NCBI GenBank assembly: GCA_038248855.1
Contig: JBBRXA010000010.1
Span: forward strand, 1,315-65,314
Origin: Bacteroidales bacterium
Lineage (GTDB): Bacteria; Bacteroidota; Bacteroidia; Bacteroidales; VadinHA17
DNA length: 64,000 bases
Direction: 5' to 3'
Shown: piece after piece, positions 12,902 to 44,575 of the stretch
Layout: every line of letters begins with the position of its first letter
How positions within the stretch are numbered: the first letter of the stretch is position 1
Notes under the pieces: model-generated
The model's database searches: none
What the model was told of the DNA's origin: nothing
The model's input: only the letters and a program-made list of their open reading frames with translations
Position numbers and translations under genes: made by a program

Positions 12902-13741
12902 TCAGAGTGCCGTGAATACTCTCACCGATGAATTTGGTGAGGCTACAGCCCTGAATCCCGCCATTGTATGATGATACCTGCGGCCGATAAAAAGTGTTGA
13001 AGTAGCTGTATACGCTGCAAAGGCTCCGCCGGCACCCATAACCTGAAGGTCCCCGATGACTGTTCCGCCGTCGTCCACTTCCTTGATCTTAAAAGTGATA
13101 AGCCGCGAGCCTGATGAAATCAGGTCAGTTTTCACAACTGTGATCTTCTCCCATCCTGTGGATTCACCGAAACCAACCGGGGTACCGATGTTAACAAGTG
13201 CGCTGGTGCGCGTATTAACATACTGGTACTGCAGTTTCTTTGTAGTTGGAACACCTGCAGATTCATACAGGAAATTGTAGAATTTGACCCAGGCTGTTGA
13301 ATCGGTAACATCAGTCAAATTGGCTACATAGGGATAACCGTTGTCAAACACTTTTGGTACCTGTGCAAAGTCATGTACAAACAAATTCTGTTTGCCTGCT
13401 GTAAGCGTTACGCTCTGGTCATAGACAAGCACATCCATATCTGTCCCCTGGTACATCTTAATATTGACGGTACCCGGATTCACTGTATAGAATCTGCCTA
13501 CCCCACCGCTGGGAATGGCATTGTAGGTATTCAGAGGGGCCTTGTTGTTGGAATATAACTGATTGTTTATCTCAACCTTGGTTATATTATTGGCAGCGAC
13601 GGCAGTAACCGGCACAATGTAATGCAGCTGGAACTCAGCCACTTCCCCGATGGTTGTGGCGTCGTATGTAATCTCGTGCTTTTCGCAAGAAACCATCAGG
13701 ATCACTGCCAGAATCAGACTTAAGTATTTTATGATTTTCAT
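12902..13741 (-). CDS. PUL-associated surface lipoprotein, unknown function
   Basis: Lipobox LMVSC. It lies directly downstream of SusD, the position typical of SGBP-like accessory binding proteins. Confidence 0.55.
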   Translation of the reverse strand: MKIIKYLSLILAVILMVSCEKHEITYDATTIGEVAEFQLHYIVPVTAVAANNITKVEINNQLYSNNKAPLNTYNAIPSGGVGRFYTVNPGTVNIKMYQGTDMDVLVYDQSVTLTAGKQNLFVHDFAQVPKVFDNGYPYVANLTDVTDSTAWVKFYNFLYESAGVPTTKKLQYQYVNTRTSALVNIGTPVGFGESTGWEKITVVKTDLISSGSRLITFKIKEVDDGGTVIGDLQVMGAGGAFAAYTATSTLFIGRRYHHTMAGFRAVASPNSSVRVFTAL

Positions 13742-13764
13742 AATTGTTGATTTTTAATTTGCAA

Positions 13765-15684
13765 TTACTTGGTTGGCATATCACCCGGATAGGCAAACCA
13801 GGGTATTGAGGTCTGGTAGTTGGGGGCCATTCCGGAAATCGGCTTCAAAGCTTCAAGAGATGGTTTGTTCCACATGTACTCCGAGTTGTAGCGCGGGCGT
13901 ATCCTGTAGGAGGGTGAACCCTCGTTGAAAGTGTTGTAGGCTGATTTACGGCCCTGTACCTGTGCAGGCGCCAGGTAAAGGCCTTTGTAAACCTTGTCCG
14001 GATCTGTATCCCATTTCATGGTTACCGTGGAGAGATCCCAGCCATTACCGCTTGAAGGATAGTCACCGGTATATTCGATGTCATAGTGGTATTTCCTCAT
14101 ATCAACCCATGCTTCAGTTGCTCCCCACGGATAGAGTGCAACCCATTTCTGCATCATGATGTGTGACAGGGTGAAATCAGCTTCTGTAAGAAGGTCAACA
14201 TATGGCCCGGCTGCATATTCAGCAGCCATCGTCGTAAAGACTGCCTTCGTGAGTTTGTCGCCACCGGAAACTCCAAGGGTAGTCTGGACACCGTCAACAA
14301 TCTTACCCTGTTTCCCGGTTAATATATAGTTGCCTGTAAAATCCAGGTCCGCCTTGACTCCGTCTCTGAGGGCCTGAAGTGATTCGGTCTTACGGTCAAG
14401 CTTCCAGAGTGCTTCCGACAGGCAGAACTTGAGTTCGGCATATGTCATCAGGATATATGGAGCGTCATCACGGTAGATCCAGCGGCCTATTCCGTCATGG
14501 GCTGCATCGTTGGTGCTGGTGGCAGCCGAGATCGAGTTGCGTCCGTAGAATGATGGTGTGGTACCGATGGGGCCCGTCAGGCCTGTAAAGGAACCTCCGT
14601 AATACTTGCGTTTCTTGATTGCATAGGCATTATCAAGATTTGTATAGGCCGGATCATCAACGGTGGCAAGCTTCACAGCAACACGCGGGTCATAGTGACC
14701 AGGTACTGTTATGATTGTGTCGGTCACAATCTGCTTTGCAGCCAGCTGATACGGGTAATATGTGTTCCCTGTAACAGGGGTCTTGTTTCCTGTTGCCTGA
14801 TCATACTCCGGCACGGTGCCCGTGAATACCTGAACAGCATACTCGTGCTGCCAGTAGGAGCGCGAAAGGTTAACCCGGCTGGTGCCCCAGAAGTTGTTGT
14901 ATCCGCTCTGGGCTGCGGCCGCACTACCTCCGGCAACCCTTACAGTTGCATTGTCAGCATTCGAAGCAAACGACTTGGAAGCTGCGTCAAGGAGCTCGGT
15001 TGCATAAGCCGTGCTGAAATCACTCTTGTTCGTGAGAGAGGTCAGGTTGCGTACAATAACTCCGTAGGCAAATTTCTTCCACCTCTCAGGATCACCTCCG
15101 TAGATGAAGTCGTTGGCGCTGATTTTGGTACCGTAGTTGGTGGCATCAGTCATTGAAAGATATTCAATAGCCTTGTTTGCCCAGCCGCGAACCGCAGAAT
15201 AGATCGTGTCCTGGTAGTCATAATCGTGTGCAAGCAGTCCCGGCACAAATGCATCCTTGAGGATGAGTTCGCCGTGCAGCTTGGTAATCTGGTCCCAGGA
15301 ATAGGCCTTGATAGCATAACCTATTCCGGCAAGCGTCCAGTTTTCTGCCGCAACTGACTGGTTTATCATGTTCTCGAGGTTCATTCCGTGGAGCCAGTAG
15401 ACAACACGCCATATCTCACCGCCGGCATCACTTCCGGAATAGTAATAGTGACTTGCAAAGTTTGCATAGCCAGAGGTACCCATCATCTGGGTGAGCGGAC
15501 CGGTGGCACGGATGTCCCAGTACATGCCCTGATATTGCTGGATGATCCCTGCAAGGTACAGATAACCTTCCACCTGGTCCGGAGCATCCACGTTTTTGTT
15601 GACATCTAGATACTCTTCACAACTTGTCGTCATGAACATGAACGATGCCAGCAAAAGAACGGAAATTGATATCTTTTTTATCAT
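13765..15684 (-). CDS. SusD/RagB family nutrient-binding outer-membrane lipoprotein
   Basis: N-terminus with lipobox then ..TTSCEEYLDVNKNVDAPD, characteristic of SusD-like proteins. Sits immediately downstream of SusC. Confidence 0.9.
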   Translation of the reverse strand: MIKKISISVLLLASFMFMTTSCEEYLDVNKNVDAPDQVEGYLYLAGIIQQYQGMYWDIRATGPLTQMMGTSGYANFASHYYYSGSDAGGEIWRVVYWLHGMNLENMINQSVAAENWTLAGIGYAIKAYSWDQITKLHGELILKDAFVPGLLAHDYDYQDTIYSAVRGWANKAIEYLSMTDATNYGTKISANDFIYGGDPERWKKFAYGVIVRNLTSLTNKSDFSTAYATELLDAASKSFASNADNATVRVAGGSAAAAQSGYNNFWGTSRVNLSRSYWQHEYAVQVFTGTVPEYDQATGNKTPVTGNTYYPYQLAAKQIVTDTIITVPGHYDPRVAVKLATVDDPAYTNLDNAYAIKKRKYYGGSFTGLTGPIGTTPSFYGRNSISAATSTNDAAHDGIGRWIYRDDAPYILMTYAELKFCLSEALWKLDRKTESLQALRDGVKADLDFTGNYILTGKQGKIVDGVQTTLGVSGGDKLTKAVFTTMAAEYAAGPYVDLLTEADFTLSHIMMQKWVALYPWGATEAWVDMRKYHYDIEYTGDYPSSGNGWDLSTVTMKWDTDPDKVYKGLYLAPAQVQGRKSAYNTFNEGSPSYRIRPRYNSEYMWNKPSLEALKPISGMAPNYQTSIPWFAYPGDMPTK

Positions 15685-15709: not shown

Positions 15710-18700
15710 TTATTTGAAAGTCACACTTAGACCGATCGAGTAACCTCGCGGGTTGGGCAGTGCCCAGACATCGATACCTTCACCGCCGGTACCGCCTGCA
15801 GCTGCAGACGTTGTATTTCCAACGGCATCAATGCCTGAATAGTTAGTCCAGACAGCAAGGTCATTACCTGTTACGAACAGGCTGGCCTGGGACAGGATTG
15901 CTGTCTTTGCGAGCCATTTCGAAGGCAGGTTGTATGAGAGGCGCAGCTCCTGCAGACGCAGGTAGTTAACATCCTTTTCAATCCAGTCCTCATCATTCCC
16001 TGTATATATTGAAGGGAAGAGGTTATAATCAACTGCTATATTATTTTTGGTGGGATTGGCTGTGTTTTCATTGCCATCCTGCAGTACGCCGTCAAACACC
16101 TGAGGCTGGCTTTCACGCAGATTCACCGACTCCCAACTGAGGCCCTCCTGCATCATATAACGCTTGGTACCATTTACAACTGTTGCCTTGTACCGTCCGG
16201 AAAACATTGCTGAAAGACGCAGTCCCTTGTAGCTCATTGAAGAGGTTACCCCGTAGCGGAGTTTTGGTTCACGGTCGCCCAGAACGCTCCACACACCACT
16301 GACAACCGGCAGACCCGATGTTGGACTGATGAGCACATCACCCGCCTCATTGCGAAGGAATGCGCGACCCGTAATTGTCGTTACCGGATAGCCGAGCATG
16401 ATACCGTTGCGGATGTTCCCTGAGTTCCAGGTGTAAGGGTTGTAATATTCAGTAACGTTAGTAGGAAGGTAGGTCACTTCAGACTCTGTATGTGAAGCAT
16501 TGAACCCGATGTTCCAACGCAGGCCGTTACCCATGCGAAGGACATCACCGTCAACGTGCAGTTCCCATCCCTCTGTCTTGAATGTACCTACGTTCATGTT
16601 GTTCAGAACGAACCCGGTTCCGTAGCTGAGACGGAAACCCTTCACGATCTGGTCATCACAGTGTGTCCAGAAGTAGGTGAAGTCGGCATTTAACCTGTCA
16701 TCAAGAAAACGACCTTCAAAGCCTACCTCTTTTGAGGTGGTGATCTCAGGCCTCAGGTTCCTGTTCGGACCTGTGAAACCATACTTGTAACCTCCGCCGG
16801 TAAGGTAAGTGGGCTCCAGCTGCGGGTCTATCTCTAGCGGACCGGCATCCTTACCTACCTGTGCTATCGACCCGCGAAGCTTCAGGTAGTTTACAAATTT
16901 GTTATCCTGAATGAAAGGCAGTTCGGTAACAATGAATGATCCCTCAATTGCCGGGTAGAAGTAACGATTGTTTGCAACAGGAAGCGTTGATGACCAGTCG
17001 TTCCTTGCACGCAATGTTATATATGCCATCTGGTTATACCCCAGTTCAAGCTGGCCGGACAGAGCCTGAATCCTTCTCTTGGTGTGACGCTGTGATGAGC
17101 TGATTGACAGCGGATCGCAGTTGTTAATCGACTGAAAGTCCACCACTGCAAACTTTGTACCGTATGTACTCAGGCGGGTGACACCGTTCTCAAGCTGGTG
17201 GTATCCGAACTGTGCTGATACTGACAGTTTATCATCCAGGAACTCATTGGTATATCCTGCAAGTACGTTCAGGGTCGGATCCGAGAAGTTTGACTTTGAA
17301 ATGTTGTATATCCCGGTTCCATCCTGGTAAGTGTCATAATATGGGTGCCTGGTGGCAATATATGTCTGCATACCTACGTCCCAGCCAACCTGCGCACGGA
17401 CGAACGTATGCTCAACCGGTACCAGTGTTGCTGACACGTTGGAGATGAGACGGTCAGAGTCATCAAACAGTTTGTTCTTGTAAAGACCGAAAAGAGGGTT
17501 GATCAGGTCACCGTCAAGATAGTAGTTCGGTGTGCTCATATGTGATCCGTCAGGAGCGAGCCAAACCGACATGTCGTCAACCATCGGCCAGCGCATTGCC
17601 CTGTAAAGAGGCCCGTCTGTTCCGAGGGGAACCTTGTTGTTTTCGGTGGCTACATATTGCATTGAAGATTCCACGGTAAGCCATTTCGTTACCTCAGCTT
17701 TTCCGGAGAGGGAAAGGTTAAACCTGTTATAGTCAGAAGTTTTTATTACACCCTGCTGATCCAGCGTGGATGCTGAGGCGCGGAGTGTAACCTTGTCTGA
17801 TCCGCCTTCAACCGAGATGTTGTGCCTCATGGTGATGCCGGTCTGCAGCACCGCGTCAATATTGTCGTAAAGGGTCATACCCTCTATATACTCACCGCCG
17901 AAACGTGTTAGATAATAGTAGTTTGTTGTTCCATAGTAACCGCTGGTGTATTTGTCCTGCAATTCGGGAATGCCATATGCATCATCCCACCTGAACGAAT
18001 TGCTGTAGGAGACTTTGCCTCTGCCTGGCTGGCCCTTCTTGGTAGTAATGATAATCGCTCCGTTTGAGGCATCGGAACCGTAGAGAGCTGCAGCAGCAGC
18101 GCCCTTGAGAACGGTCATTGATTCAATGTCATCCGGGTTGAAGTCGTTTCCGCGCGATGCGAAGTCGAGGTTACGTACCGAGAAGTTGACTCCGGCATCT
18201 GCCATCGACAGCGGGTCAAACGTCGAGTTGTTCATCGGAATACCGTCGACAACATAGAGCGGCTGGTTGTTGCCTGATATTGAGGTGATACTCCTCAAAA
18301 CCACGGAGGTTGAAGAACCGGGGGCACCGCTGGTGCTTCCGACGTTCATACCTGCAACGCGCCCCTGAAGGGCCGTTATGAAGTTGTCACGCCCTGACTC
18401 GATAATGTCAGTGGCCTTTATGTTCTGAACCGATGAACCGACAGCCCTTGAAACACGTTTCATTCCGAATTCTGCGGTTACAACTACATCTTCGACATTG
18501 ATGACATCCGGATTCATCCGGGCATCATAGCGGTTGGAAGTTCCAACCGTAATTTCAAGGTCGGAGTAACCGAGATAGGTAAACACCAGAACCTGACCTG
18601 CCGGAACACTGATCGAATAAAATCCGCTTCCGTCTGTGCTTGTACCGGTTGTGGTGTTCTTGATGATCACATTGACCCCCGGCAACGTTTCATTGGTGCC

Positions 18701-18802
18701 CGCGTCAGTGACGTACCCTGTTACGGTCTTGGGTTGAGCATAAGTGCTTTGGGAAAGCATCAGGCCCAAGACCGCAAACAATGTTAATAGAATTGTTCTC
18801 AT
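15710..18802 (-). CDS. SusC/RagA family TonB-dependent outer-membrane transporter
   Basis: 1030 aa. N-terminal CarboxypepD_reg-like domain (VTGYVTDAGTNETLPGVNVIIKNTTTGTSTDGSGFYSI), plug domain, C-terminal ...SIGLSVTFK barrel end. No STN domain. Confidence 0.95.
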   Translation of the reverse strand: MRTILLTLFAVLGLMLSQSTYAQPKTVTGYVTDAGTNETLPGVNVIIKNTTTGTSTDGSGFYSISVPAGQVLVFTYLGYSDLEITVGTSNRYDARMNPDVINVEDVVVTAEFGMKRVSRAVGSSVQNIKATDIIESGRDNFITALQGRVAGMNVGSTSGAPGSSTSVVLRSITSISGNNQPLYVVDGIPMNNSTFDPLSMADAGVNFSVRNLDFASRGNDFNPDDIESMTVLKGAAAAALYGSDASNGAIIITTKKGQPGRGKVSYSNSFRWDDAYGIPELQDKYTSGYYGTTNYYYLTRFGGEYIEGMTLYDNIDAVLQTGITMRHNISVEGGSDKVTLRASASTLDQQGVIKTSDYNRFNLSLSGKAEVTKWLTVESSMQYVATENNKVPLGTDGPLYRAMRWPMVDDMSVWLAPDGSHMSTPNYYLDGDLINPLFGLYKNKLFDDSDRLISNVSATLVPVEHTFVRAQVGWDVGMQTYIATRHPYYDTYQDGTGIYNISKSNFSDPTLNVLAGYTNEFLDDKLSVSAQFGYHQLENGVTRLSTYGTKFAVVDFQSINNCDPLSISSSQRHTKRRIQALSGQLELGYNQMAYITLRARNDWSSTLPVANNRYFYPAIEGSFIVTELPFIQDNKFVNYLKLRGSIAQVGKDAGPLEIDPQLEPTYLTGGGYKYGFTGPNRNLRPEITTSKEVGFEGRFLDDRLNADFTYFWTHCDDQIVKGFRLSYGTGFVLNNMNVGTFKTEGWELHVDGDVLRMGNGLRWNIGFNASHTESEVTYLPTNVTEYYNPYTWNSGNIRNGIMLGYPVTTITGRAFLRNEAGDVLISPTSGLPVVSGVWSVLGDREPKLRYGVTSSMSYKGLRLSAMFSGRYKATVVNGTKRYMMQEGLSWESVNLRESQPQVFDGVLQDGNENTANPTKNNIAVDYNLFPSIYTGNDEDWIEKDVNYLRLQELRLSYNLPSKWLAKTAILSQASLFVTGNDLAVWTNYSGIDAVGNTTSAAAGGTGGEGIDVWALPNPRGYSIGLSVTFK

Positions 18803-18914
18803 TTGATTGGTTTTAGGGTTAAATGATAGTTAGGTTATATTATTGTGGTTTTAGAAACTCGGACTTTCTTTAAGAGCAAGATAAAGACTTTTTCTGTATG
18901 ATGTATTACAACTA

Positions 18915-20060
18915 TTATATTTTTCTCTGAATAATTCCCAGTCCCGGACCGGAAGGAAGAGTCACCTTGCCGTCAATGACTGTCAATCCATCATAAAGGT
19001 CATTGCTGATCAGAAGGTTTCCGTCAAGGTCAGCCCAGTCAACGAGTGGTGAGAGCTGCGCTGCAGCTGACACTGCACAGGATGTCTCTGTCATACATCC
19101 TATCAAAATCTTCATCCCCATAGCCCTGGCAAGAGTTATCATCCTGTATGCGGCATTCATTCCCCCGCATTTCATCAGCTTGACATTTATGCCCGAGTAA
19201 ATACCCTTCATCGGGAGCAGGTCTGCTACGGTCTGAAGGGCTTCGTCAGCCAGAATCGGCAGCGGGCTTCTCTCTGTCAGCCAGGCAATATCGTCAACCC
19301 GTTCCTTGGCCATCGGCTGCTCGATAAAGACAACATTCTTCTCTTTCAGCCAGAATGCCATTTCAAGCGCCTGATCCCTGTCCTTCCACCCCTGGTTAAC
19401 GTCTACATATAAGGGTTTGTCCGTAACTGACCTGACACTCTCGATCATCTCCCTGTCATTGTCCCTTCCGAGTTTTACCTTCAGTATTTTGAACACGTCA
19501 GCCTCTCTGGTCTTCTCCTTCACAACATCAGGAGTGTCAATTCCAATTGTAAAACTCGTGTCCGGGGTCTTTGCAGGATCAAGTCCCCAGATCCTGTACC
19601 ACGGCTCACCGATGAGCTTGCCGATAAGGTCATGCAGGGCGATGTCCACCGAAGCTTTTGCGGCATAATTACCGGGCATGATGCCGTCAACATACGCAAG
19701 GATGTCTTCCTTAAGGAAAGGATCACTGAATTGCTCAAGTTTTACCTTTGAGAGAAACGCGGTCACAGAAGCCTGGCTTTCACCAAGATACGGCGGCATG
19801 GAGGCTTCTCCGAAGCCTGTAACTCCGTCATATTCAATTTCTGTGAGCACCACCGGAGTTGTTGTTCTCGAATTGGAGGCGACCGTAAAAACATGCTTCA
19901 GCTGCAGTTCATAAGGTCTGAAACTGAGCCTGAGCGTTGAAGACCCTCCTGTTTTTCCTGATCGCTTTCCCATTGATTCTTTTGCAGACGGGGTTGAACA
20001 GCCAGTGATTATGGCCCCTGCAGCCAGTCCCCCGTATTTGATGAAATCTCTTTTCTTCAT
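18915..20060 (-). CDS. dipeptide epimerase (enolase superfamily, L-Ala-D/L-Glu epimerase-like) with Tat-like lipoprotein signal
   Basis: Core pattern of mandelate racemase/muconate-lactonising family dipeptide epimerases (LKVKLG, FIEQP, DE..Q, KL.K.GG). N-terminus is MKKRDFIKYGGLAAGAIITGCS. Confidence 0.8.
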   Translation of the reverse strand: MKKRDFIKYGGLAAGAIITGCSTPSAKESMGKRSGKTGGSSTLRLSFRPYELQLKHVFTVASNSRTTTPVVLTEIEYDGVTGFGEASMPPYLGESQASVTAFLSKVKLEQFSDPFLKEDILAYVDGIMPGNYAAKASVDIALHDLIGKLIGEPWYRIWGLDPAKTPDTSFTIGIDTPDVVKEKTREADVFKILKVKLGRDNDREMIESVRSVTDKPLYVDVNQGWKDRDQALEMAFWLKEKNVVFIEQPMAKERVDDIAWLTERSPLPILADEALQTVADLLPMKGIYSGINVKLMKCGGMNAAYRMITLARAMGMKILIGCMTETSCAVSAAAQLSPLVDWADLDGNLLISNDLYDGLTVIDGKVTLPSGPGLGIIQRKI

Positions 20061-20063
20061 TTT

Positions 20064-21236: not shown

Positions 21237-21263
21237 GAAATGTTGTATTACATCTTACAAATC

Positions 21264-36178: not shown

Positions 36179-39100
36179 TTACTTTCTTATAAGGAATTCA
36201 AGGGTCTGTTTCATCAGCCTGTTCCTGTCGGTTTCGGATTTAACTGTCTCAAATGGAAAACCCAGCACCAAAGTTCTGTTTTTTCCGCGGTGTATTACGC
36301 CTGCTGAGGTATTATTCTCGGTGTACCTGAAAGCAGTGACCGATGATTTGTCAGCAGGAACAATGGCATCAGTGGCTTCTGCACCGTAAACTTCACCTGT
36401 TTGCTCAGTATTGAATTCCACCGGGCCGCTGAAGAGGGGAGCGGCAATATCAGTTGGGCTTACTGCACCTTTCTTTACAGCGTGCCCCGTCATTGCCCTG
36501 AAATGCAGATAATCGGCTGCAAAAGCCATAACAGATGTATCTGCTGAGATGCGAAGATCTGTTCCCACATAGGATCCTGACATGAAGATTGATATGCCGG
36601 CTTCGGTAATCGCTTTGATTTTACGTGTGAATTCCGGGGTGTATATCTGAAAATCAAGTTTGGTACTGTCATATGCAGCTGCCGTCGTCTTTTCTTCGCC
36701 GAAAATCAGATCTGCGACCTGATACGGAGAGATGTCAAAATCGGGACGGCTGAACACCTCATCACTGACGGAACAGAAAGAGTAACCTGCGGCCATGATG
36801 GCTTTACCGTGAACAGAGGCAAAGTCAAAAGTGTTACCCGGAATTATTTTCCCTTCCATATCAGACCAGGAGGCTCCCCAGCCGGGATTGTCATCATCGA
36901 TCCACGGCAGACTGCGCTCAAAGTCATACTGATCGCCGGTGGTGACAATGTCATAACCGTCTGCCACACCCCGGTCTCTCCACCACGCCACTCCTGCCAT
37001 TCCATTCCTGTCAAACCATTCAGGACCAGAGGTACGGTCAAAACCGTTGACAATCAGCACTCTGGTTTCCTCTCCCCTTTTCAGTCCCACAGCAAGAGTC
37101 TCTGACTCGAAGCTTTCACCCCCGTCATTGAAGGCAGTGACCCTGAAACTGTAAACAGTGTCATAGTGTGGCAGTTCTACTACTGCCGAGGTTTCAGTCA
37201 CGTCAAATCCATTATCGAATCCGTTGTCACCGGTGCGGGTGTAAATCCTGTAACCTGCAGGCTGTGCCGAAGGCTCCAGAGGGTCCTGCACAGGAGCCCA
37301 GCTGATTTTTACACTTCTGCTCTCAAGGGGAATAATTGCCAGGTCAGTGACGGGAAGCGGTTGCACAGTATAGTCTCTGGCCCGGTCAGATGACAGGTAC
37401 CTGAGTATTCCTTTATAGACAGCGCGGCTTACGTGGAATCTGAAACGGGGATCCAGGCCGTAACGCTGGTCTCCCTGGTTCTGATGCGAGAGAAGTTCCA
37501 GCAACATTGCCGGTACGGCGGGGGTCCTGGCTTCCGAGTAGGATCTGTCCCACAGCCCGCGACGGGTCCACTGAGGATTGAACAGCACTTTTACATCCCC
37601 GACTATCTGAGTCTGAATCATGTCAGTAAGATCACGGCTGGCCATCCGGCTGGTGCCGTCAGGAAACTTTCCGCCTCCCGCAGCGGTGGAATAGATGCCA
37701 AGGGTTCCTATTATGGAGTCATCAGGTGTGACCCCGGCATCAGTGTGAAAAGCGAGGGCCAGATCAATGGGAATACCAAGGCCCGATGCCTCCCCTGTGC
37801 CTGCCCCGGGTTCAGCCGGGCCTGCAAGGTAGTTGACCCAGGCACCGCGTGACATATAATCGTCATTATAGTCGTTCCTGTTTTTGTTCGGCGTATAAAC
37901 AAGAGTATCCGGCATTCCCGCATACTGCAGATAATACCTTGCACCCTCCAGGTATCGGGGTTTTCCGCTGAGTTTCCATGTATGGCTGACAGTGTCATTA
38001 TGAGCTTGCAGGGTTTCTGCCGGTGAGGTTGCATTGAGAGACCACTGGTTGGAAATCAGGTCATCAGAAGGGCGGCGCGCCACATTCCCCATGCCTCCCC
38101 CGAACCTCACGGCATCAAGGGCAGTATACCCGTTATCACCTGAAGTGACCGTGACAGCCCCTGTGGATTCGTTTTTGCCGGCGTTAAACTGAAATGTTCC
38201 AAGATAAATCCAGGTGCCTCCCCCGACAGTCTGATTGACGACAAACGAGGTGTTTCCTCCGCTGTGCCTGACGGTGTACCTGACAGCATTACTATTGTCC
38301 GCCGATTGCGGATAGGAAACATATACAGAATAATTTCCTTTTTCCGGAATGTCTGCAATGTAATCTGCAGTACCCTCGCTGAATCTCAGGGAGGTCCCCT
38401 TGCTGAAAGGATTGTCACCTGCAAACAGCGTATCAGTCAGAAGAAATCCCTCACCTGTCGCTTCCTGCTGACCGGAAATGTGTATGACAAATTCCGATTC
38501 ACCCGATGAGCGGTCGTTGTCAACAATAACTTCATTGACCTGTGTGTCTCTTTCCCTTGGCAGTAAGACAGTTGCTCCTGAGTTTTCAAGCATCCTGGTG
38601 AGGTAGGGCAGAACATAGCCCATCACCGATATGTCTTCAACAGTCCCGAACAGTTTTGCCCTCTGCCACTCCCAGCGGTCAAGGGGCTGATCAAAATAAT
38701 AACCATGACTGTGCCAGATCGCCAGGTTGGTTTCAGCCAATCCCGCAGAAGGAATAATACCGTTGATTTTCGTGATGAACACCGGTCTGTCAGCGGATCT
38801 GCGCAACAGCCTGGCGGTGTCGGCCGGAAGGGACTTCCTGTAGTAGTTCGGGATAAGGTCACGGATTAAAAATCCGTTTGTACGGATATTAATGCTGTAA
38901 TTACTGAACTTCCTTCCAAGAGCCTCTCTAAGTGAATTCTCGAAGACAGCAAGGGTTCCTTCCCTGACCGGATTATATGAAAATGCAGCAGGAAACCACA
39001 GGTCAATACTCCCGGCTTTGTCGATACTCAGGGAGTCAGGCCTGATTCTGTCGGGAAAATGCCATTCTGCAACGGGATTGGTCCAGGAATCAAGTTTTGT

Positions 39101-39208
39101 CAATGCTTTTTTTTCGAGCCTTGCCTCTCTCTGTCCTGAAAGACTGGCGCCACTGATCAACATTAAAATGATCACCGCGTATAATAACCTTCCTGATCGG
39201 GTTCTCAT
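36179..39208 (-). CDS. secreted multidomain protein: split MurNAc-L-Ala amidase-like fold, golvesin-C-like insert, FN3 and an unknown C-terminal domain
   Basis: Signal peptide. IWHSHGYY ... ALAFHTDAG ... MLLELLSHQN resembles Amidase_3 metal and catalytic positions. NYSVYVSYPQSADNSNAVRYTVRHSGGNTSFVVNQTVGGGTWIYLGTFQF matches my memory of the golvesin C-terminal-like domain. FN3-like region: SVKISWAP...YSFRVTAFNDGGES. Confidence 0.5.
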   Translation of the reverse strand: MRTRSGRLLYAVIILMLISGASLSGQREARLEKKALTKLDSWTNPVAEWHFPDRIRPDSLSIDKAGSIDLWFPAAFSYNPVREGTLAVFENSLREALGRKFSNYSINIRTNGFLIRDLIPNYYRKSLPADTARLLRRSADRPVFITKINGIIPSAGLAETNLAIWHSHGYYFDQPLDRWEWQRAKLFGTVEDISVMGYVLPYLTRMLENSGATVLLPRERDTQVNEVIVDNDRSSGESEFVIHISGQQEATGEGFLLTDTLFAGDNPFSKGTSLRFSEGTADYIADIPEKGNYSVYVSYPQSADNSNAVRYTVRHSGGNTSFVVNQTVGGGTWIYLGTFQFNAGKNESTGAVTVTSGDNGYTALDAVRFGGGMGNVARRPSDDLISNQWSLNATSPAETLQAHNDTVSHTWKLSGKPRYLEGARYYLQYAGMPDTLVYTPNKNRNDYNDDYMSRGAWVNYLAGPAEPGAGTGEASGLGIPIDLALAFHTDAGVTPDDSIIGTLGIYSTAAGGGKFPDGTSRMASRDLTDMIQTQIVGDVKVLFNPQWTRRGLWDRSYSEARTPAVPAMLLELLSHQNQGDQRYGLDPRFRFHVSRAVYKGILRYLSSDRARDYTVQPLPVTDLAIIPLESRSVKISWAPVQDPLEPSAQPAGYRIYTRTGDNGFDNGFDVTETSAVVELPHYDTVYSFRVTAFNDGGESFESETLAVGLKRGEETRVLIVNGFDRTSGPEWFDRNGMAGVAWWRDRGVADGYDIVTTGDQYDFERSLPWIDDDNPGWGASWSDMEGKIIPGNTFDFASVHGKAIMAAGYSFCSVSDEVFSRPDFDISPYQVADLIFGEEKTTAAAYDSTKLDFQIYTPEFTRKIKAITEAGISIFMSGSYVGTDLRISADTSVMAFAADYLHFRAMTGHAVKKGAVSPTDIAAPLFSGPVEFNTEQTGEVYGAEATDAIVPADKSSVTAFRYTENNTSAGVIHRGKNRTLVLGFPFETVKSETDRNRLMKQTLEFLIRK

Positions 39209-39253: not shown

Positions 39254-39413
39254 GAAAGTTTTTTAAAATATGTCATACATCTGACAAAAACTGGTTTTGT
39301 ACAGAATAATTATTTATTTTTGTTATTGGTAAAGATTTCCAAATTGGTTCCTTTTTAATATAACAGCTGTTATAATACTAATATCTAACATAGTGCAAGT
39401 TTTATAAACGCTT

Positions 39414-40268
39414 ATGATACTCATAGCCGACAGCGGATCCACAAAGACTGAATGGAGGGAACTGACTGAGGGAACATCCGGGAAGTCATACAGATCAACG
39501 GGACTCAATCCCTTCTTTCTGAAAAGTGACGATATAGTTGCGCTCCTTCAAACAGAAATGTCAGAAGTTGAAGGTGTGCCGGTCAGTCAGATATTTTTTT
39601 ACGGTACGGGGTGCAGCAATCCTGCCAAAATTGAAATAATAAGCATTGCCCTGAAGAAGTTTTTCGGTGACGCCGAACTGTTTGTCGGCAGTGACCTCCT
39701 CGGCGCTGCCAGGTCTCTGTGTCAGAACGAGGCGGGTATAGCCTGCATAATAGGCACAGGATCAAATTCATGCTATTATGACGGCAAAAAGATTGTCTCC
39801 AATGTTTCGCCCCTCGGTTATATCCTCGGTGATGAAGGAGGCGGGGCAGTAATAGGGAGAAAACTGGTCTCCGGGGTTCTCAAAAAACAGCTTCCGGGTA
39901 TTGTAATTGAGAACTTTTTCAGGGCATATCCAATGTCACCGTCAGAAATTCTTGACAGTGTCTACAACATGCCTTTTCCGAACAGGTTTCTGGGCCAGTT
40001 TGCCAGGTTTATCGCAGAGAATATCCATGTCCCTGAATTGGAGGCAATAATCACCTCAAGTTTTGATGAGTTCCTCTTAAGGAATGTGCTCCAGTACCCC
40101 GAGGCAAGAAAATTTCCGGTACATTTTACCGGGAGCATCGCCTGGCATTTCAGGCCTTTCCTTGAAGACCTTTTGATCAGGTACAGGCTACAGCCGGGAA
40201 TATTTTCATTGACCCCTATGGAAAACCTTGTCCGGTACCACCTTCACAATCAGCAGAAAGCATTATGA
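39414..40268 (+). CDS. BadF/BadG/BcrA/BcrD-type sugar kinase (GlcNAc/MurNAc kinase, MurK-like)
   Basis: MILIADSGSTKTEW N-terminus and GTGSNSC motif of the ASKHA BadF-type kinases. 4-nt overlap with murQ. Confidence 0.7.
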   Translation: MILIADSGSTKTEWRELTEGTSGKSYRSTGLNPFFLKSDDIVALLQTEMSEVEGVPVSQIFFYGTGCSNPAKIEIISIALKKFFGDAELFVGSDLLGAARSLCQNEAGIACIIGTGSNSCYYDGKKIVSNVSPLGYILGDEGGGAVIGRKLVSGVLKKQLPGIVIENFFRAYPMSPSEILDSVYNMPFPNRFLGQFARFIAENIHVPELEAIITSSFDEFLLRNVLQYPEARKFPVHFTGSIAWHFRPFLEDLLIRYRLQPGIFSLTPMENLVRYHLHNQQKAL

Positions 40269-41104
40269 GCAGACCTTCCTCATCAAAGCCGGCAATAAGT
40301 ATCACCGAGTCGCCTTCCAACTTTGAAAACCTTGATAATATGTCTGTGCATGAATTGCTGACAAACATAAATCATGAAGATGCCAAGGTGCACCTGGCAG
40401 TCAGGGCTGCTATTCCGCAGATTGAAAATCTTGTTGACCATATACTCAGGAGGATGAATAAGGGCGGCCGTCTTTTTTATCTTGGTGCCGGAACCAGCGG
40501 AAGGCTGGGCGTGCTTGACGCTTCGGAGATACCTCCCACTTTCGGGGTCTACGATAAGGTGATCGGACTCATTGCTGGCGGTGAAGTAGCCCTCCGCAGA
40601 CCCGTTGAATCAGCTGAAGATGACCCTAATAAAGCCTGGAATGAGCTGGAGATCTTCAACATCAACACCAAGGATACAGTGATAGGAATAGCTGCATCCG
40701 GAACCACTCCGTATGTCATCGGGGGAATACAAAACGCGCGCGCGAAAGGCATACTTACCGGATGCATAACCTGCAATCCGGGCAGCGCCATTGTCAAAGT
40801 GACTGAATTCCCCATTGAGGTTGTGGTAGGTCCTGAATTTGTCACCGGCAGTACCAGGCTGAAGGCGGGCACCGCCCAGAAGATGATCCTCAACATGATA
40901 ACCACCACACTCATGATCAAGCTCGGAAGGGTCAAGGGCAACAAGATGGTCAACATGCAGCTCTCAAACAAGAAACTCATCGAACGAGGCACAAGAATGA
41001 TTGTGGAGGAGCTTAATATCCAGAGTGACGCTGCCCGGATACTTCTGCTTCAGAACGGGTCTGTCAAGAAAGCCCTTGAGGTTTACAGGGAAAACTATAA
41101 GTGA
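40265..41104 (+). CDS. murQ: N-acetylmuramic acid 6-phosphate etherase
   Basis: GRLFYLGAGTSGRLGVLDASEIPPTFG, SGTTPYVIGG and STRLKAGTAQK motifs, SIS domain, 279 aa. Confidence 0.93.
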   Translation: MSRPSSSKPAISITESPSNFENLDNMSVHELLTNINHEDAKVHLAVRAAIPQIENLVDHILRRMNKGGRLFYLGAGTSGRLGVLDASEIPPTFGVYDKVIGLIAGGEVALRRPVESAEDDPNKAWNELEIFNINTKDTVIGIAASGTTPYVIGGIQNARAKGILTGCITCNPGSAIVKVTEFPIEVVVGPEFVTGSTRLKAGTAQKMILNMITTTLMIKLGRVKGNKMVNMQLSNKKLIERGTRMIVEELNIQSDAARILLLQNGSVKKALEVYRENYK

Positions 41105-41829
41105 TTATGGAAGACATATTCAGTAAAATCGGTACCGGACTCACCCTGAGCCAGAAGATCGAAAGGAAAATCGAGGAAGCGATAAGGCAGAAAAAGCTTC
41201 TTCCGGGAGCCAAGCTGCCAACAGAAAAGGAACTCTGCGCCCAGTTCGCCGTCAGCCGCACTGCACTGAGGGAAGCCCTGCGGCGTCTGAGTGCCCGCGG
41301 ACTTATTGACATTAAAAAAGGCAGTGGAATGTACATTACCGAGCTGAAGATCGAAGACGCCATCAACTCGCTGCATCTCTTTTACGACCTCAGGTTCAAT
41401 TCCGATCTCATCCTGCAGATCATTGAGGTAAGGCGCCTCTTTGAACCTGAGGTAGCACGACTGGCGGCTCGCAACAGGACCGAAGAGGACATCAAGATCC
41501 TGCAAAAGAACCAGATAGAACTTGAAAAGTGCAACCCTGACAACACCCAGCTCGAGGTTGACCTCATAAACAGGTTTCACATGAACCTTTCCAAATCAAC
41601 AGGGAACCCAATTGTAATTATCAGTCTTGAACCCGTTTACTCACTCCTGCCGCGGATGCGAAACCTCATTTACGGAAACATAGAGGGAGAAAAGGAGTAC
41701 ACCCTCAAATACCAGAAGGAGCTCCTCAGGGCACTGAGGGAAAAAGACAGCCAGAAGGCATACGAGGTATCTGTTGCCCTTCTTGAACGCAACAAGGAGA
41801 TTTATAACAAGTATTTCAAACCCAGCTGA
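41101..41829 (+). CDS. GntR family (FadR/FCD subfamily) transcriptional regulator
   Basis: N-terminal winged HTH (LPTEKELCAQFAVSRTALREALRRLSARGLI) plus a helical FCD-like C-domain. Overlaps the murQ stop by 4 nt. Confidence 0.85.
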   Translation: MIMEDIFSKIGTGLTLSQKIERKIEEAIRQKKLLPGAKLPTEKELCAQFAVSRTALREALRRLSARGLIDIKKGSGMYITELKIEDAINSLHLFYDLRFNSDLILQIIEVRRLFEPEVARLAARNRTEEDIKILQKNQIELEKCNPDNTQLEVDLINRFHMNLSKSTGNPIVIISLEPVYSLLPRMRNLIYGNIEGEKEYTLKYQKELLRALREKDSQKAYEVSVALLERNKEIYNKYFKPS

Positions 41830-41854
41830 CCTTCCGGCAGTCATTAATTCTGCA

Positions 41855-43300
41855 ATGCTGAAAATATATCTTGCAGCTGCATTAATCTCATTCAGCGGGC
41901 TCTGTCTTCAGGCACAGGAACCTGACACATCGCGGGTTGGCATACACCAGACCGAGAGCCAGTATTACTCGCTGATAATTGATAAAGCACTTTTTGACGA
42001 TAAAATTCTAATGGCAGCTCCCTCAGTACTCAAGAGTAAAGCAGTCGTTCCTCTTACACACAAGGTCTACGGATGGCACCCTTACTGGGCTCCAGAATCA
42101 GCCTATCTCTCATATGATTACAGCGCCCTCACCCATATCGCATATTTCAGTTATGAGGTCGATACGGCAACCGGCGGGTACATGACGCTCAGGGGATGGA
42201 ACACCACCCCGGTAATCGACTACGCCCATCAGCGGGGTGTCAAAGTCACACTGACCGTAACCAATTTCGGCGCAGCAAGAAATACTGAATTACTGTCAGA
42301 CACTGTCAAACAGACGTTACTAATAACTACGGTCGTCCAGCAACTTAAGGCGCGTAACGGTGACGGAGTCAATTTCGATTTCGAAACTGTTCCGGCAGCA
42401 CAGAAAGCCAATATGGTTGATTTCTGCAGGCGGGCTGTAAGGATGATAAAGAAAGAGCTCCCTGCCGCGGAGATATCACTTGCGACACCAGCGGTCGACT
42501 GGTCTTCCGCATGGGATTACCACTCACTGGCAGGGATATGCGATTACCTGATCATTATGGGGTACAACTATTACTGGAGCGGATCCGCAACGGCCGGTCC
42601 TGTTGCTCCGCTCACAGGAGAGACTCAGAATGTGACCCGTAGCATTGACACTTATCTCAACGCAGGTGTCCCCCCGGAGAAACTTCTGCTGGGAGTTCCC
42701 TGGTACGGGTACGACTGGCCTGTTGTCAGCAACGAAAGAAAGGCTGCCACAACCGGTACCGGAACGTCACGTATTTACAGGGCAGCTGAAGTGCTTGCTG
42801 AATTGCACGGCAGGGAGTTTGATCAGACCACGGGAGTTCCCAGAGTGAGCTACATGGCAGGTACCGACTGGCGGCAGTTGTGGTACGATGACAGCCTGAG
42901 CCTCTCCCTGAAATATGACCTTGTGAAAACCAAAAGGCTGGCCGGGATCGGCATCTGGGCATTGAGCTATGAGGCTGACAGAAAGGAACTCTGGAGAAGT
43001 ATCAAAGCATCATTCTCTGAAGAGCCACCGGATAACTCCCGGATCCTGGAAATTGTCCCTAACCCCGTTTCAGAAATTTCAGTTATCAGCTTCGCCCTGT
43101 CATCACGGGGCCATGTAAAACTTATGCTTTATGATATAAGCGGCAACCTCAGGGCTATCCTTTTCAATCACGAACTTGAACCTGGCTACTATGATCAGAG
43201 CTTTAATTCTGCAGGCTTCAGCGACGGTATTTACATATGTGTATTGCAAACCCCCTCAGGCAGGTCATCGAAGAAGATAGCAGTAATTAAAAGAGAGTAA
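41855..43300 (+). CDS. GH18 family hydrolase (YaaH/SleL-like) with T9SS C-terminal sorting domain
   Basis: Signal peptide from ATG 41855. Catalytic DGVNFDFE at 42362-42385. The C-terminal ~80 aa (LEIVPNPVSE...IYICVLQT...KKIAVIK) are typical of the type A T9SS CTD. Confidence 0.75.
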   Translation: MLKIYLAAALISFSGLCLQAQEPDTSRVGIHQTESQYYSLIIDKALFDDKILMAAPSVLKSKAVVPLTHKVYGWHPYWAPESAYLSYDYSALTHIAYFSYEVDTATGGYMTLRGWNTTPVIDYAHQRGVKVTLTVTNFGAARNTELLSDTVKQTLLITTVVQQLKARNGDGVNFDFETVPAAQKANMVDFCRRAVRMIKKELPAAEISLATPAVDWSSAWDYHSLAGICDYLIIMGYNYYWSGSATAGPVAPLTGETQNVTRSIDTYLNAGVPPEKLLLGVPWYGYDWPVVSNERKAATTGTGTSRIYRAAEVLAELHGREFDQTTGVPRVSYMAGTDWRQLWYDDSLSLSLKYDLVKTKRLAGIGIWALSYEADRKELWRSIKASFSEEPPDNSRILEIVPNPVSEISVISFALSSRGHVKLMLYDISGNLRAILFNHELEPGYYDQSFNSAGFSDGIYICVLQTPSGRSSKKIAVIKRE

Positions 43301-43324
43301 TGAGTTACAAAAAACATACACTAA

Positions 43325-44575
43325 ATGAAAAAATTTGCTGTGGTTATGCTAATGCTTTCAATTCTCCCGGCATTAAAAGGTCAGATGCAGGAAGCAGTAA
43401 ATAAGATACAGGCTGATTACCAGCTTATGGGACTTTCAGTGGTCACCGTCTGCGGAGACCGTGTAACCGGGTCTTTTCACGCTGGATTAAGGGATTATGA
43501 ACGCAACCTGACGGTTAATGACAGCACCAGATTCAGGATTGCGTCCATATCAAAGCTTGTCATGACTACGGCAATGATGAGGCTGTATGACAGGGGTCTT
43601 TTCAAGCTTGATGATGATGTCAGCCGCTACCTTGGGTTCACACTCAGGAATCCGAATCATCCTCAGATACCGATAACGGTCCGGATGCTGCTCTCACATA
43701 CGGGAAGTCTCAATGAGGGGACAGGTTATGATACCTTCCTCACGGATACTTACAATAATGTCAGTAATCCGCCCGATTTTTCTCAGCTGCTGACTCCCGG
43801 AGGCAAATATTACACTGAAGATATGTGGAGGAAGGAGCTTCCCGGAACATATTTTTCATATTGCAATGCAAACTTCGGACTTGCCGGTACCCTGATTGAA
43901 AAGATAAGCGGACAGAGATTCGACAGGTTCATTGCAGAGAATCTCTTTATTCCCCTTGGTATAACAGGTGCTTACACCGTGGAAGGACTCAGTGATATAA
44001 ACAGTCTTGCGGTAATTTACCGTAACGAAGAAGGGAAATGGACTCCCCAGACAGATAACTTCAGGGGTGAGCTGACTGCACCCCGCGATTTTTCAGGATA
44101 TAAAACCGGTACCAACGCTGCGGTCTTCTCACCCCAGGGAGGGCTCAGGATATCAGCCTCTGAACTGGCAAGGGTAATGATACTGCACCTTAATAAGGGC
44201 ACCTTTGACGGAAAAAGGATTATATCAAAAAAGAGTATTAGGCTTATGCATTCACCGCAATGGAAATACAACGGAAGTAACGGTGATGATGTGGGTCAGT
44301 CTAGGTCCTGGGGACTCAGCATCCATATTCTGACCAACACCCCCTCCGGTGATGTAATCTTTAAGGATTCAAAAATGATGGGGCACACGGGTGATGCCTA
44401 CGGACTGAAATCCGGCTTCTGGTTTGACCCGGTCAACAGGTCAGGATTTATCTTCATGACAAACGGCATTTTCAAACAGCCGCCACCGGGATCCTATTCC
44501 GCTTTTGACAGCTTTCAGGAATCGGTTTATTCAGCAGTCAGGGACAACTCCGGAGTGCCCTGCAAAAAAGAATAG
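43325..44575 (+). CDS. secreted serine hydrolase of the beta-lactamase/DD-peptidase family (AmpH-like)
   Basis: Signal peptide, SxxK (ASISK), Y.N (YCN) and GHTG (KTG-equivalent). Confidence 0.8.
   Translation: MKKFAVVMLMLSILPALKGQMQEAVNKIQADYQLMGLSVVTVCGDRVTGSFHAGLRDYERNLTVNDSTRFRIASISKLVMTTAMMRLYDRGLFKLDDDVSRYLGFTLRNPNHPQIPITVRMLLSHTGSLNEGTGYDTFLTDTYNNVSNPPDFSQLLTPGGKYYTEDMWRKELPGTYFSYCNANFGLAGTLIEKISGQRFDRFIAENLFIPLGITGAYTVEGLSDINSLAVIYRNEEGKWTPQTDNFRGELTAPRDFSGYKTGTNAAVFSPQGGLRISASELARVMILHLNKGTFDGKRIISKKSIRLMHSPQWKYNGSNGDDVGQSRSWGLSIHILTNTPSGDVIFKDSKMMGHTGDAYGLKSGFWFDPVNRSGFIFMTNGIFKQPPPGSYSAFDSFQESVYSAVRDNSGVPCKKE

Follow-up and report, generated by a model that had tools for sequence, protein, structure and literature searches.

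A probable GntR-controlled locus for the use of peptidoglycan-derived material in an uncultured Bacteroidales bacterium

Results and discussion

We analysed a 64-kb stretch of DNA from an uncultured Bacteroidales bacterium (contig JBBRXA010000010.1; hereafter the window), in which 19 contiguous long open reading frames (ORFs) form a block of 32 kb. Judged from gene content, gene order and a predicted operator, it is likely that this block is a single GntR-controlled regulon using peptidoglycan-derived material, built on the Bacteroidota salvage core of AmpG, NamZ, MurK and MurQ. An earlier note on this DNA had described it as a unit for the catabolism of peptidoglycan and N-acetylmuramic acid (MurNAc), and this description stands: the key families keep their assignments, the core is syntenic with an operon of Tannerella forsythia, and the predicted operator is common to the promoters.

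Families were called by Pfam, NCBIfam and PDB sequence searches of the window ORFs, and related loci were gathered in a NamZ-anchored genome scan and a GntR-anchored metagenome scan, each giving 80 loci. The calls for NamZ, AmpG, MurQ, NlpC/P60, the epimerase and the other key members were upheld and none was reassigned. Among the weaker calls, the fusion of NagB- and LmbE-like domains (NagB-LmbE) had low Pfam scores, a 1009-aa exported protein (the giant) was borderline for Amidase_3, and the presumed BadF-type kinase is better placed in the MurK family. The ORF listing bears out the two divergent promoter regions and the lack of any unrelated insert, with tight gene packing throughout; it gives 19 genes, not the 21 claimed in the earlier note, whose own list also has 19 items.

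The genes fall into four units (Table 1), and the long unit from the giant to the NagB-like gene has intergenic gaps of 1-23 bp or overlapping genes. On both sides the block is bordered by housekeeping genes (pentose-phosphate enzymes, prolyl isomerases, an M3 peptidase, DUF4126, Memo, photolyase and PurL), hence we regard the block as discrete. G+C content is even over the window, and the nearest genome locus is L002, whose NamZ is 96% identical.

In the pathway that we propose, wall fragments would reach the periplasm, probably via the adjacent SusC-SusD (SusCD) cassette. The giant would remove stem peptides from MurNAc, the YkfC-type endopeptidase would split L-Ala-gamma-D-Glu from the diamino acid, and the epimerase would convert L-Ala-D-Glu to L-Ala-L-Glu. 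The bare glycan would be trimmed from its non-reducing end by NamZ and the CE4-GH9 fusion, and AmpG would take in N-acetylglucosamine-(anhydro)MurNAc (GlcNAc-(anh)MurNAc). MurK would phosphorylate MurNAc and MurQ would yield GlcNAc-6-phosphate (GlcNAc-6-P) and D-lactate; NagB-LmbE would carry GlcNAc-6-P on to fructose-6-phosphate and a flavoprotein would oxidise the D-lactate. A GntR/FCD repressor, probably released by MurNAc, MurNAc-6-phosphate (MurNAc-6-P) or a related acid, would act on the giant/murK, NlpC/P60/NamZ and SusC promoters.

Table 1. Positions of the block, its genes and predicted sites, and of counterparts in related loci (window coordinates unless a locus is named; E, expectation value).
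Feature	Position	Strand	Remarks
Peptidase M3, oligopeptidase/Dcp-like, no signal peptide	10719..12809	plus	Pfam Peptidase_M3 E 1e-129
Terminator-like hairpin, 12-bp stem then T-run	12833..12861	minus	ends the predicted SusC-SusD-lipoprotein transcript
32-kb block	12902-44575		19 contiguous long ORFs
Unit 1, NlpC/P60-epimerase-SusC-SusD-lipoprotein	21236 down to 12902	minus	
Unit 2, NamZ alone	21526-22782	plus	
Unit 3, eight genes, 1009-aa giant to NagB-like gene	39208 down to 22779	minus	
Unit 4, kinase-MurQ-GntR-GH18-serine hydrolase	39414-44575	plus	
Surface lipoprotein, 279 aa, third cassette gene	12902..13741	minus	lipobox
SusD-like lipoprotein (SusD-like_2)	13765..15684	minus	Pfam E 2e-24
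SusC/RagA TonB-dependent transporter	15710..18802	minus	TIGR04056 E 1e-186, 623 bits (cut-off 368)
Swapped SusC in sister loci	L006 4057-7452; L012 3878-7294; L015 3845-7261		window counterpart 15710-18802
Operator-like site TTGTAATACATCATACAGAA, epimerase stop to SusC start	18892..18911	minus	22.8 bits, second-best
L-Ala-D/L-Glu-type dipeptide epimerase (YkfB/YcjG class, MR/MLE)	18915..20060	minus	exported lipoprotein
YkfC-type NlpC/P60 + SH3b gamma-D-Glu-diamino-acid endopeptidase	20064..21236	minus	lipoprotein
Divergent gap 1	21237-21525		NlpC/P60 start 21236, NamZ start 21526
Operator-like site TTGTATTACATCTTACAAAT, abuts NlpC/P60-operon -7 box	21243..21262	plus	19.8 bits
-7 box TAAATTTG, NlpC/P60 operon	21264-21271	minus	site TTGTATTACATCTTACAAAT just downstream
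NamZ (GH171) exo-beta-N-acetylmuramidase, exported	21526..22782	plus	signal peptide/lipobox
NagB-like deaminase + LmbE/PIG-L-like deacetylase fusion, 775 aa	22779..25106	minus	cytoplasmic
FAD + Fe-S 2-hydroxyacid dehydrogenase	25130..28072	minus	GlcD-like/GlpC-like fusion
AmpG-family permease, ~190-aa central-loop insert	28081..29925	minus	TIGR00901 E 2.5e-45
Exported GH9 + CE4 fusion	29928..32399	minus	Glyco_hydro_9 E 1e-68, Polysacc_deac_1 E 7e-13
SpoIID/LytB-domain protein, no signal peptide	32401..33744	minus	cytoplasmic; TIGR02669 E 1e-47
DUF4922/GDPGP1-like HIT (GalT-branch) nucleotidyl-transferase or NDP-sugar phosphorylase	33741..34676	minus	cytoplasmic
Soluble GT2, extra 245-aa N-terminal domain	34691..36169	minus	Glycos_transf_2 E 1e-20
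Giant, 1009 aa, exported	36179..39208	minus	split Amidase_3-like + Golvesin_C + fn3 + uncharacterised C-terminal domain
Divergent gap 2	39209-39413		giant start 39208, kinase start 39414
-7 box TATTTTTG, giant operon	39246-39253	minus	
Putative operator ATGTCATACATCTGACAAAA, giant/murK gap	39270-39289	plus	32.6 bits, best in window
-7 box TATTTTTG, murK operon	39315-39322	plus	
MurK-family MurNAc/GlcNAc kinase, 284 aa	39414..40268	plus	PDB 1zbs (PG1100) E 3e-77
MurQ MurNAc-6-phosphate etherase	40265..41104	plus	PRK05441 E 6e-109, 364 bits (cut-off 168)
GntR/FCD regulator	41101..41829	plus	GntR E 7e-22, FCD E 6e-16
GH18, signal peptide + T9SS Por_Secre_tail	41855..43300	plus	GH18 E 8e-34, motif DGVNFDFE
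Exported serine hydrolase, beta-lactamase/AmpH/D-aminopeptidase family	43325..44575	plus	Beta-lactamase E 4e-51, SISK motif
Stand-alone CE4	L025 13226-14008; L030 15450-16241		pairing with giant resembles CwlD with PdaA
GH3 fusion	L141 10739-13708; L124 10758-13709; L127 8536-11493; L102 6428-9379		directly after gntR

A putative GntR operator

The regulator combines a winged helix-turn-helix domain with an FCD domain, and palindromes of the TNGTNNNACNA type, which we take as its putative operator, are found at the promoters. A phylogenetic footprint of 42 orthologous giant/murK intergenic regions revealed one common block, TCAAAAATAGAAAGTTTTTTAAAATATGTCATACATCTGACAAAAAAC, in otherwise diverged sequence. 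Its core ATGTCATACAT, kept in 41 of the 42 regions, has the form of a GntR-type palindrome, TGT-N3-ACA. In the window the core is placed between two Bacteroidetes -7 boxes, and would thus cover the -33 regions of both divergent promoters.

A 20-nt position weight matrix, built without the window's own site, was used to scan both strands of the 64-kb window. The four best matches all fall in the locus, and Markov-1 random windows give 0.02 matches at 19 bits or more. The site between epimerase and SusC is identical in L002 and L003. The one abutting the -7 box of the NlpC/P60 operon is identical in at least 10 loci (including L002, L003, L006 and L009-L013) and near-identical in Carboxylicivirga. 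The remaining match, CTGTCATACATCCTATCAAA (19088-19107, plus strand, 19.3 bits), lies inside the epimerase 3' end about 290 bp 5' of the SusC start; it is kept in several relatives, for which coding constraint could account.

In the GntR-anchored scan murK-murQ-gntR and the giant operon point away from each other in practically all cases (about 40 loci), with MurQ directly 5' of GntR in 48 of 49. GntR is much better conserved over the 80 metagenome loci than its neighbours, with identities of 86-98% for GntR, 76-83% for MurQ, 50-81% for the kinase and 53-62% for the giant. The simplest reading is that one putative GntR/FCD repressor controls the whole block. The nearest models of the regulator are NanR, PdhR, GlcC and LldR. 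These are sensors of acidic metabolites, which makes an effector of the MurNAc type (MurNAc, MurNAc-6-P or a related acid) plausible.

In the PULDB sense of a polysaccharide utilization locus (PUL), the adjacent susC and susD are present, and the CAZymes GH171, GH9, CE4 and GH18 lie in one contiguous block. As for co-regulation, the operator-like motif is common to three promoter gaps, with the predicted SusC-proximal site weak in distant relatives.

Predicted peptide-processing enzymes

The NlpC/P60 and epimerase genes are 3 bp apart, and this pairing of an SH3b-NlpC/P60 protein with an enolase-superfamily epimerase is that of YkfC/YkfB. The former carries the Pfam domains NLPC_P60 and SH3_16 and matched PDB 3pvq/3npf at E 1e-58 to 6e-60 and Bacillus cereus YkfC (3h41) at E 7.5e-32. 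The epimerase matched 3iji from Bacteroides thetaiotaomicron at E 5e-156 and 1jpd from Escherichia coli at E 9e-41, and its N-terminus, KKRDFIK...ITGC, reads as a Tat-like leader with a lipobox. Epimerase, NlpC/P60 and NamZ genes are linked in 25 loci, whose NamZ identities reach as low as about 64%. Among them are Prolixibacteraceae and Carboxylicivirga, a strain of the latter having part of the locus.

The Peptidase M3 gene next to the block may also be a member with a role in stem-peptide breakdown. This is hinted at by orthologues of 41-43% identity that stand between NlpC/P60 and AmpG, near NamZ, in Ignavibacterium (L069, L079 and L081). In the window's lineage the gene sits among housekeeping peptidyl-prolyl isomerase genes, with no operator upstream.

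The putative uptake cassette

The susC and susD genes are 25 bp apart, and export leaders or lipoboxes are predicted for SusC, SusD and the lipoprotein. No terminator was found between the epimerase gene and SusC, and a strong hairpin lies 3' of the lipoprotein gene. Of the 23 informative loci, 15 have a SusC-type gene no more than 600 bp from the epimerase and 20 have one no more than 3 kb away, and the SusC genes adjoining the epimerase belong to at least three lineages, at 75-85%, 35-40% and 25-31% identity. As far as gene content can tell, SusCD-type uptake is a conserved feature of the related loci.

The particular cassette of the window is less closely tied to them. The same SusC-SusD-lipoprotein set, with SusD 67-70% identical, occurs in Mycovorax (Chitinophagales), in Fulvivirgaceae (Cytophagales) and in another lineage; these contexts are unrelated, with no peptidoglycan genes nearby and no such operator site. 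In the sister genomes of L006, L012 and L015 a different SusC (1131-1138 aa) and SusD occupy the slot; the signal peptide and N-terminal third of these SusCs (MRT.LL.LFAVLGL.LSQS.YAQ...) are almost the same as in the window. As this third stays near-identical while barrel and SusD differ, the transporter cassette appears to have been exchanged by recombination within susC. Since the cassette is found in unrelated contexts and replaced in sister genomes, we regard muropeptides as no more than candidate ligands of it.

SusD gave weak PDB matches only (3fdh, and the chitin-binding SusD 8j0p at E 8e-6). The lipoprotein, which accompanies SusCD in every context examined, had no Pfam or NCBIfam match. 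Its AlphaFold2 (AF2) model (pLDDT 80.7) shows two beta-sandwich domains for which Foldseek returned generic tandem beta-sandwich matches only (PepT1/2 ectodomain, TM 0.45; Bacteroides adhesin-like proteins), hence the fold gives no clue to the ligand.

It is possible, if on the unlikely side, that only the salvage core acts on peptidoglycan-derived material, the cassette being an importer for general purposes, e.g. of oligopeptides or some other common solute, that sits in a recombination-prone slot. The locus would then mainly recycle the cell's own wall and not harvest foreign peptidoglycan. Such recycling is what AmpG is known for in textbooks. The copies remote from peptidoglycan genes, the joining of another SusCD pair to the conserved SusC N-terminus and the generic lipoprotein fold all agree with such an importer. 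It fits less well with a SusC-type gene being kept by the epimerase in most loci, from at least three SusC lineages, and with an operator-like site 5' of SusC that occurs only in the peptidoglycan-locus context. Further, no terminator parts SusC from the NlpC/P60-epimerase genes under the predicted operator, a GH18 predicted to be secreted by the type IX secretion system (T9SS) shares an operon with murQ, and the homologous core of T. forsythia is used on exogenous peptidoglycan (PMC7670621). The proposal that SusC/SusD feeds the locus is plausible but not established: a SusC-type gene is retained beside the epimerase, but the same cassette turns up in unrelated contexts and is swapped in sisters.

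Proposed glycan trimming and cytoplasmic finishing enzymes

NamZ matched both of its domain profiles over full length (NamZ_N E 1e-83, positions 1-202 of 203; NamZ_C E 7e-38, 1-152 of 152). A G+C-rich hairpin, CCCGCGGCGGAACCCGCAGG, at 21465-21484 stands about 40 bp 5' of its start in an A+T-rich leader and had no Rfam match. At the other end NamZ (plus) and NagB-LmbE (minus) converge with a 4-bp overlap at 22779-22782, leaving no terminator space.

In AmpG the TIGR00901 match, in two stretches, reaches 154.9 bits against a curated cut-off of 350, and the shortfall is due to the insert of about 190 aa that splits it. The orthology is based on conserved operon position and on 57-60% identity to AmpG of T. 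forsythia-type loci (L041). The insert (residues ~165-355) is soluble, lies between the halves of this major facilitator superfamily (MFS) protein and has no family match; it is present in L027 (637 aa) and absent from L022 (428 aa) and L041 (432 aa).

The kinase matched the T. forsythia MurK/K1058 entries 8oqw, 8oqk and 8ow9 at E 1e-67 to 4e-68. NagB-LmbE, found directly beside murK-murQ-gntR in L102, matched NCBIfam PRK02122 at E 1e-55 (below its cut-off) and nagB at E 4e-25. NagB forms the C-terminal half, with PDB NagB matches at E 2e-21. Pfam values are only E 0.003-0.008 (E 0.003 for PIG-L, which at 18.7 bits stays below its cut-off of 28.2), and the motifs PHHDD and PDTH are present, (A/P)HPDD being the PIG-L metal motif. 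The fusion is a plausible substitute for NagA plus NagB. The dehydrogenase holding flavin adenine dinucleotide (FAD) and Fe-S domains matched Pfam FAD_binding_4, FAD-oxidase_C and Fer4 and the YdiJ/GlcD/GlpC NCBIfam models, and its substrate is probably D-lactate. Other hydroxyacid dehydrogenases substitute for it in L022 and L025, and this recurrence fits D-lactate release by MurQ. In the NamZ-anchored scan NagB-LmbE, the FAD/Fe-S enzyme, AmpG and GH9-CE4 are linked in the closer clade.

The GH9-CE4 fusion carries DASD and NEP motifs in GH9 and HSDAH in CE4, and its best deacetylase models are the spore-cortex PdaA/PdaB (E 1e-13). In the Prolixibacteraceae loci L025 and L030 the gene just 3' of the giant encodes a stand-alone CE4 that shares 54% identity with the corresponding half of the fusion, an arrangement that ties CE4 to the amidase-like protein. 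A role of GH9-CE4 as plain NagZ substitute was considered and rejected, as it co-occurs with an exported GH3 fusion in L124 and L141.

The genes after gntR are variable accessories: GH18, with a true start near M28 and predicted to be secreted or at the surface, comes right behind GntR in 28 of 50 loci; the serine hydrolase is present in 23 of 50. Loci without these two have an exported GH3+beta-lactamase-family fusion (983-989 aa) right after GntR; this fusion, found in 25 of the 80 loci, follows GH18 in some, and the window has no GH3. The N-acetylglucosaminidase RmNag3 of Rhodothermus marinus has the same GH3+beta-lactamase-type architecture, and its study associates it with peptidoglycan turnover (PMC6987092). 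We suggest that the slot is filled by exchangeable pairs, each of a GlcNAc-directed glycosidase with a serine peptidase, and this speaks for GH18 and the serine hydrolase being members of the locus. GH18 is no plain replacement for GH3, as both occur together in L149, L156 and L160. The secreted lysis step of the earlier note is not established; it would depend on this GH18 with a T9SS tail, which is not a fixed trait of the loci. Other accessories recurring in related loci are transglutaminase-like proteins, GNAT, GHL10 and an NAD-dependent D-2-hydroxyacid dehydrogenase.

The GH18 family consists mainly of chitinases, and a T9SS-secreted GH18 together with SusCD is typical of chitin loci in Flavobacterium. 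One may ask on these grounds whether GH18-T9SS, GH9-CE4, NagB-LmbE and SusCD target chitin, chitosan or another polymer of GlcNAc or glucosamine and are merely adjacent to a MurNAc salvage operon. CE4 with a GH9 exo-glucosaminidase would suit chito-oligosaccharides, and the weak match of SusD to 8j0p points the same way. We find this very improbable, since GH9-CE4 stands between SpoIID and AmpG in the giant-AmpG operon of every relative that has it, the stand-alone CE4 comes right after the giant, and the best CE4 models are those of the spore cortex. Further, GH18 is co-transcribed with murK-murQ-gntR in a slot shared with, or then followed by, the GH3-serine-hydrolase fusion of RmNag3 architecture, and GH20, GH19 and chitin-binding modules are absent.

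The giant and a cytoplasmic trio

The Amidase_3 score of the giant is 26.8 bits at full length against a cut-off of 27. With residues 227-477 (including Golvesin_C) left out it rises to 33.7 bits over profile positions 29-173. The candidate metal or catalytic residues H166/H168, E191, H488 and E571 are invariant in 27 homologues. The AF2 model made from this 27-sequence alignment had a mean pLDDT of 58, below 50 in the amidase region. A profile search of the same alignment against PDB gave no amidase, only the Golvesin_C-like domain (xanthan lyase) and fn3. We consider it probable that the giant is an amidase of the MurNAc-L-Ala type. The database name 'xanthan lyase' was rejected because it rests on the non-catalytic domain.

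Downstream of the giant lie three predicted cytoplasmic proteins. The GT2 has its best PDB match in chondroitin synthase K4CP (E 7e-12), a DSDD motif and no transmembrane segment. The DUF4922 protein (DUF4922 E 7e-60; GDPGP1_C) has HLHFQ and CFLC motifs. The SpoIID-like protein has no leader or membrane anchor in the window or in 13 orthologues, which is unexpected for the family and places a lytic-transglycosylase-type domain in the cytoplasm.

Probably these three proteins supply the steps that are lacking for the processing of the disaccharide and of anhydro-MurNAc in Bacteroidota. We further speculate, as a quite improbable but specific variant, that they process imported GlcNAc-(anh)MurNAc without hydrolysis, by a route that replaces NagZ/AnmK, conserves energy and is widespread in Bacteroidota. 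The GT2 would work in reverse, in the manner of sucrose synthase, turning disaccharide and uridine diphosphate (UDP) into UDP-GlcNAc and MurNAc. The DUF4922 protein, by its HxHxQ motif, would phosphorolyse or exchange the nucleotide sugar, and the SpoIID-like enzyme would handle the 1,6-anhydro end.

Both GT2 and the GalT-branch HIT families are typically biosynthetic, and all three proteins are cytoplasmic. The T. forsythia counterpart is called glycosylation-related, and its regulator mutant alters surface glycoproteins (PMC5388701, citing Niwa 2011). One could thus take the giant-GT2-DUF4922-SpoIID part as biosynthetic, for envelope or surface-protein glycosylation or wall remodelling from salvaged sugars, and the locus as a catabolic and anabolic mix. 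This seems unlikely to us, since the trio is always co-transcribed with AmpG and its predicted operator is shared with murK-murQ. In addition, about 60 loci examined contained no flippase, polyprenyl-phosphate transferase or nucleotide-sugar synthesis genes.

Compartments, absent families and points against the regulon

Besides the cassette, leaders or lipoboxes are predicted on NlpC/P60, the epimerase, NamZ, GH9-CE4, the giant, GH18 and the serine hydrolase. NagB-LmbE, the FAD/Fe-S dehydrogenase, MurK, MurQ, GntR, GT2, DUF4922 and the SpoIID-like protein have none. The outside-in layout that had been proposed agrees with these signals but missed the cytoplasmic place of SpoIID, GT2 and DUF4922. 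The reported absence of nagA, nagZ (GH3), anmK, ampD and ldcA was found to be correct, as no window ORF of at least 120 aa matches these families, and it should be noted that this refers to the 64-kb window and not the genome. Of the idea that fusion proteins replace them, NagB-LmbE for NagA and NagB survives as plausible, but GH9-CE4 is no simple NagZ substitute. A MurT-type MurNAc transporter is seen in 11 loci, and tblastn with three sister-locus MurT-like proteins gave nothing in the window.

Several points weigh against a single peptidoglycan regulon. The cassette is shared with unrelated contexts, and the SusC-proximal operator-like site weakens in more distant relatives. By score the giant is only a borderline amidase, and its AF2 model is unreliable in that region. 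No role is assigned to the cytoplasmic SpoIID-like, GT2 and DUF4922 proteins, whose part of the operon is called glycosylation-related in the T. forsythia literature (PMC5388701). Entry of NamZ-released MurNAc is unaccounted for with no MurT in the window, and no enzyme that splits imported GlcNAc-MurNAc or opens anhydro-MurNAc was identified. Finally, the substrate specificity of GH18 is not fixed by its family match.

Other features of the window

Rfam and tRNA scans gave no match. A Lar_N (lactate-racemase-like) protein stands beside a D-2-hydroxyacid dehydrogenase at 274-2665, and a CCG/4Fe-4S/flavoprotein gene cluster (Hdr- or Lut-like) at 54109-59195.

Comparison with known systems

The T. 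forsythia salvage core, NamZ/GH171 and the YkfB/YkfC enzymes are already known. New are the composite PUL-like regulon, the putative GntR operator, the CE4-GH9 fusion, the NagB-LmbE and Dld-like additions and the swapping of parts; the literature searched gave no description of a SusCD-linked peptidoglycan utilization locus. Much organic carbon and nitrogen in soils, sediments and guts is present as peptidoglycan, whose consumption by Bacteroidota is known mainly from one oral auxotroph. Here a free-living Bacteroidales lineage appears to build the known salvage core into a PUL-like regulon, with uptake and glycosidase parts exchanged in modular fashion between relatives. The predicted operator and repressor make the regulon directly testable, and the locus isolates a conserved, uncharacterised cytoplasmic trio.

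The closest studied system is the T. forsythia operon Tanf_08345-08385, with the order 'xanthan lyase'-gtf-gtf-lytB-ampG-ybbC/NamZ-murT-murK-murQ (PMC5388701, Fig. 2). It supports growth on peptidoglycan and muropeptides through AmpG, and ampG is peptidoglycan-induced (PMC7670621). The window has the same families in the same order from giant through GT2, DUF4922 and SpoIID to AmpG, plus NamZ, MurK and MurQ. A Dysgonomonadaceae-type locus, L041 (NamZ2-giant-GT2-DUF4922-SpoIID-AmpG-NamZ-(MurT-like)-MurK-MurQ), has the published T. forsythia order. The statement that parts of the set cluster in T. forsythia is thus confirmed by synteny of the core with the studied operon (PMC5388701, PMC7670621). 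The window differs in having no MurT, in its split into divergent units and in a GntR/FCD regulator with a predicted operator in place of the GppX hybrid two-component system, of which the window has no gene. GH9-CE4, NagB-LmbE, the FAD/Fe-S dehydrogenase, YkfC, the epimerase, the SusCD cassette, GH18 and the serine hydrolase are additions.

In the Bacillus subtilis cluster murQ-murR-murP-amiE-nagZ-namZ(ybbC), an amidase, a GlcNAc-removing enzyme and NamZ trim from the non-reducing end and MurQ processes MurNAc-6-P (PMC8054146). The window shares this exo-lytic logic in a Gram-negative layout, with outer-membrane uptake and AmpG instead of the MurP phosphotransferase system. It has no GH3 NagZ, its candidate amidase is a 1009-aa split-domain protein, and the regulator is GntR/FCD and not RpiR/MurR. 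The YkfA-D and YcjG-MpaA systems of B. subtilis and E. coli likewise have an adjacent gamma-D-Glu-diamino-acid endopeptidase and L-Ala-D/L-Glu epimerase. In the window these enzymes are linked to a SusC-type transporter and NamZ, and as both carry export signals their chemistry is placed in the periplasm, unlike in those systems.

Sus-like PULs, e.g. the chitin locus of Flavobacterium johnsoniae, are alike in a tandem susC/susD with a surface lipoprotein, a nearby T9SS-secreted glycosidase, periplasmic exo-enzymes, an MFS permease of the inner membrane and a regulator of their own. Here the proposed substrate is a peptide-cross-linked heteropolymer, so peptidases, amidase and epimerase are integral. 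The regulator is GntR/FCD rather than HTCS/ECF/SusR, and the SusCD cassette is not specific to the locus type. Compared with AmpG-NagZ-AmpD-LdcA-AnmK-MurQ-NagA-NagB recycling in E. coli, AmpG import and the MurQ/NagB chemistry are alike, whereas the NagZ, AmpD, LdcA, AnmK and NagA families are absent from the window, both the removal of peptides and trimming would be periplasmic, and an LmbE-type deacetylase is fused to NagB.

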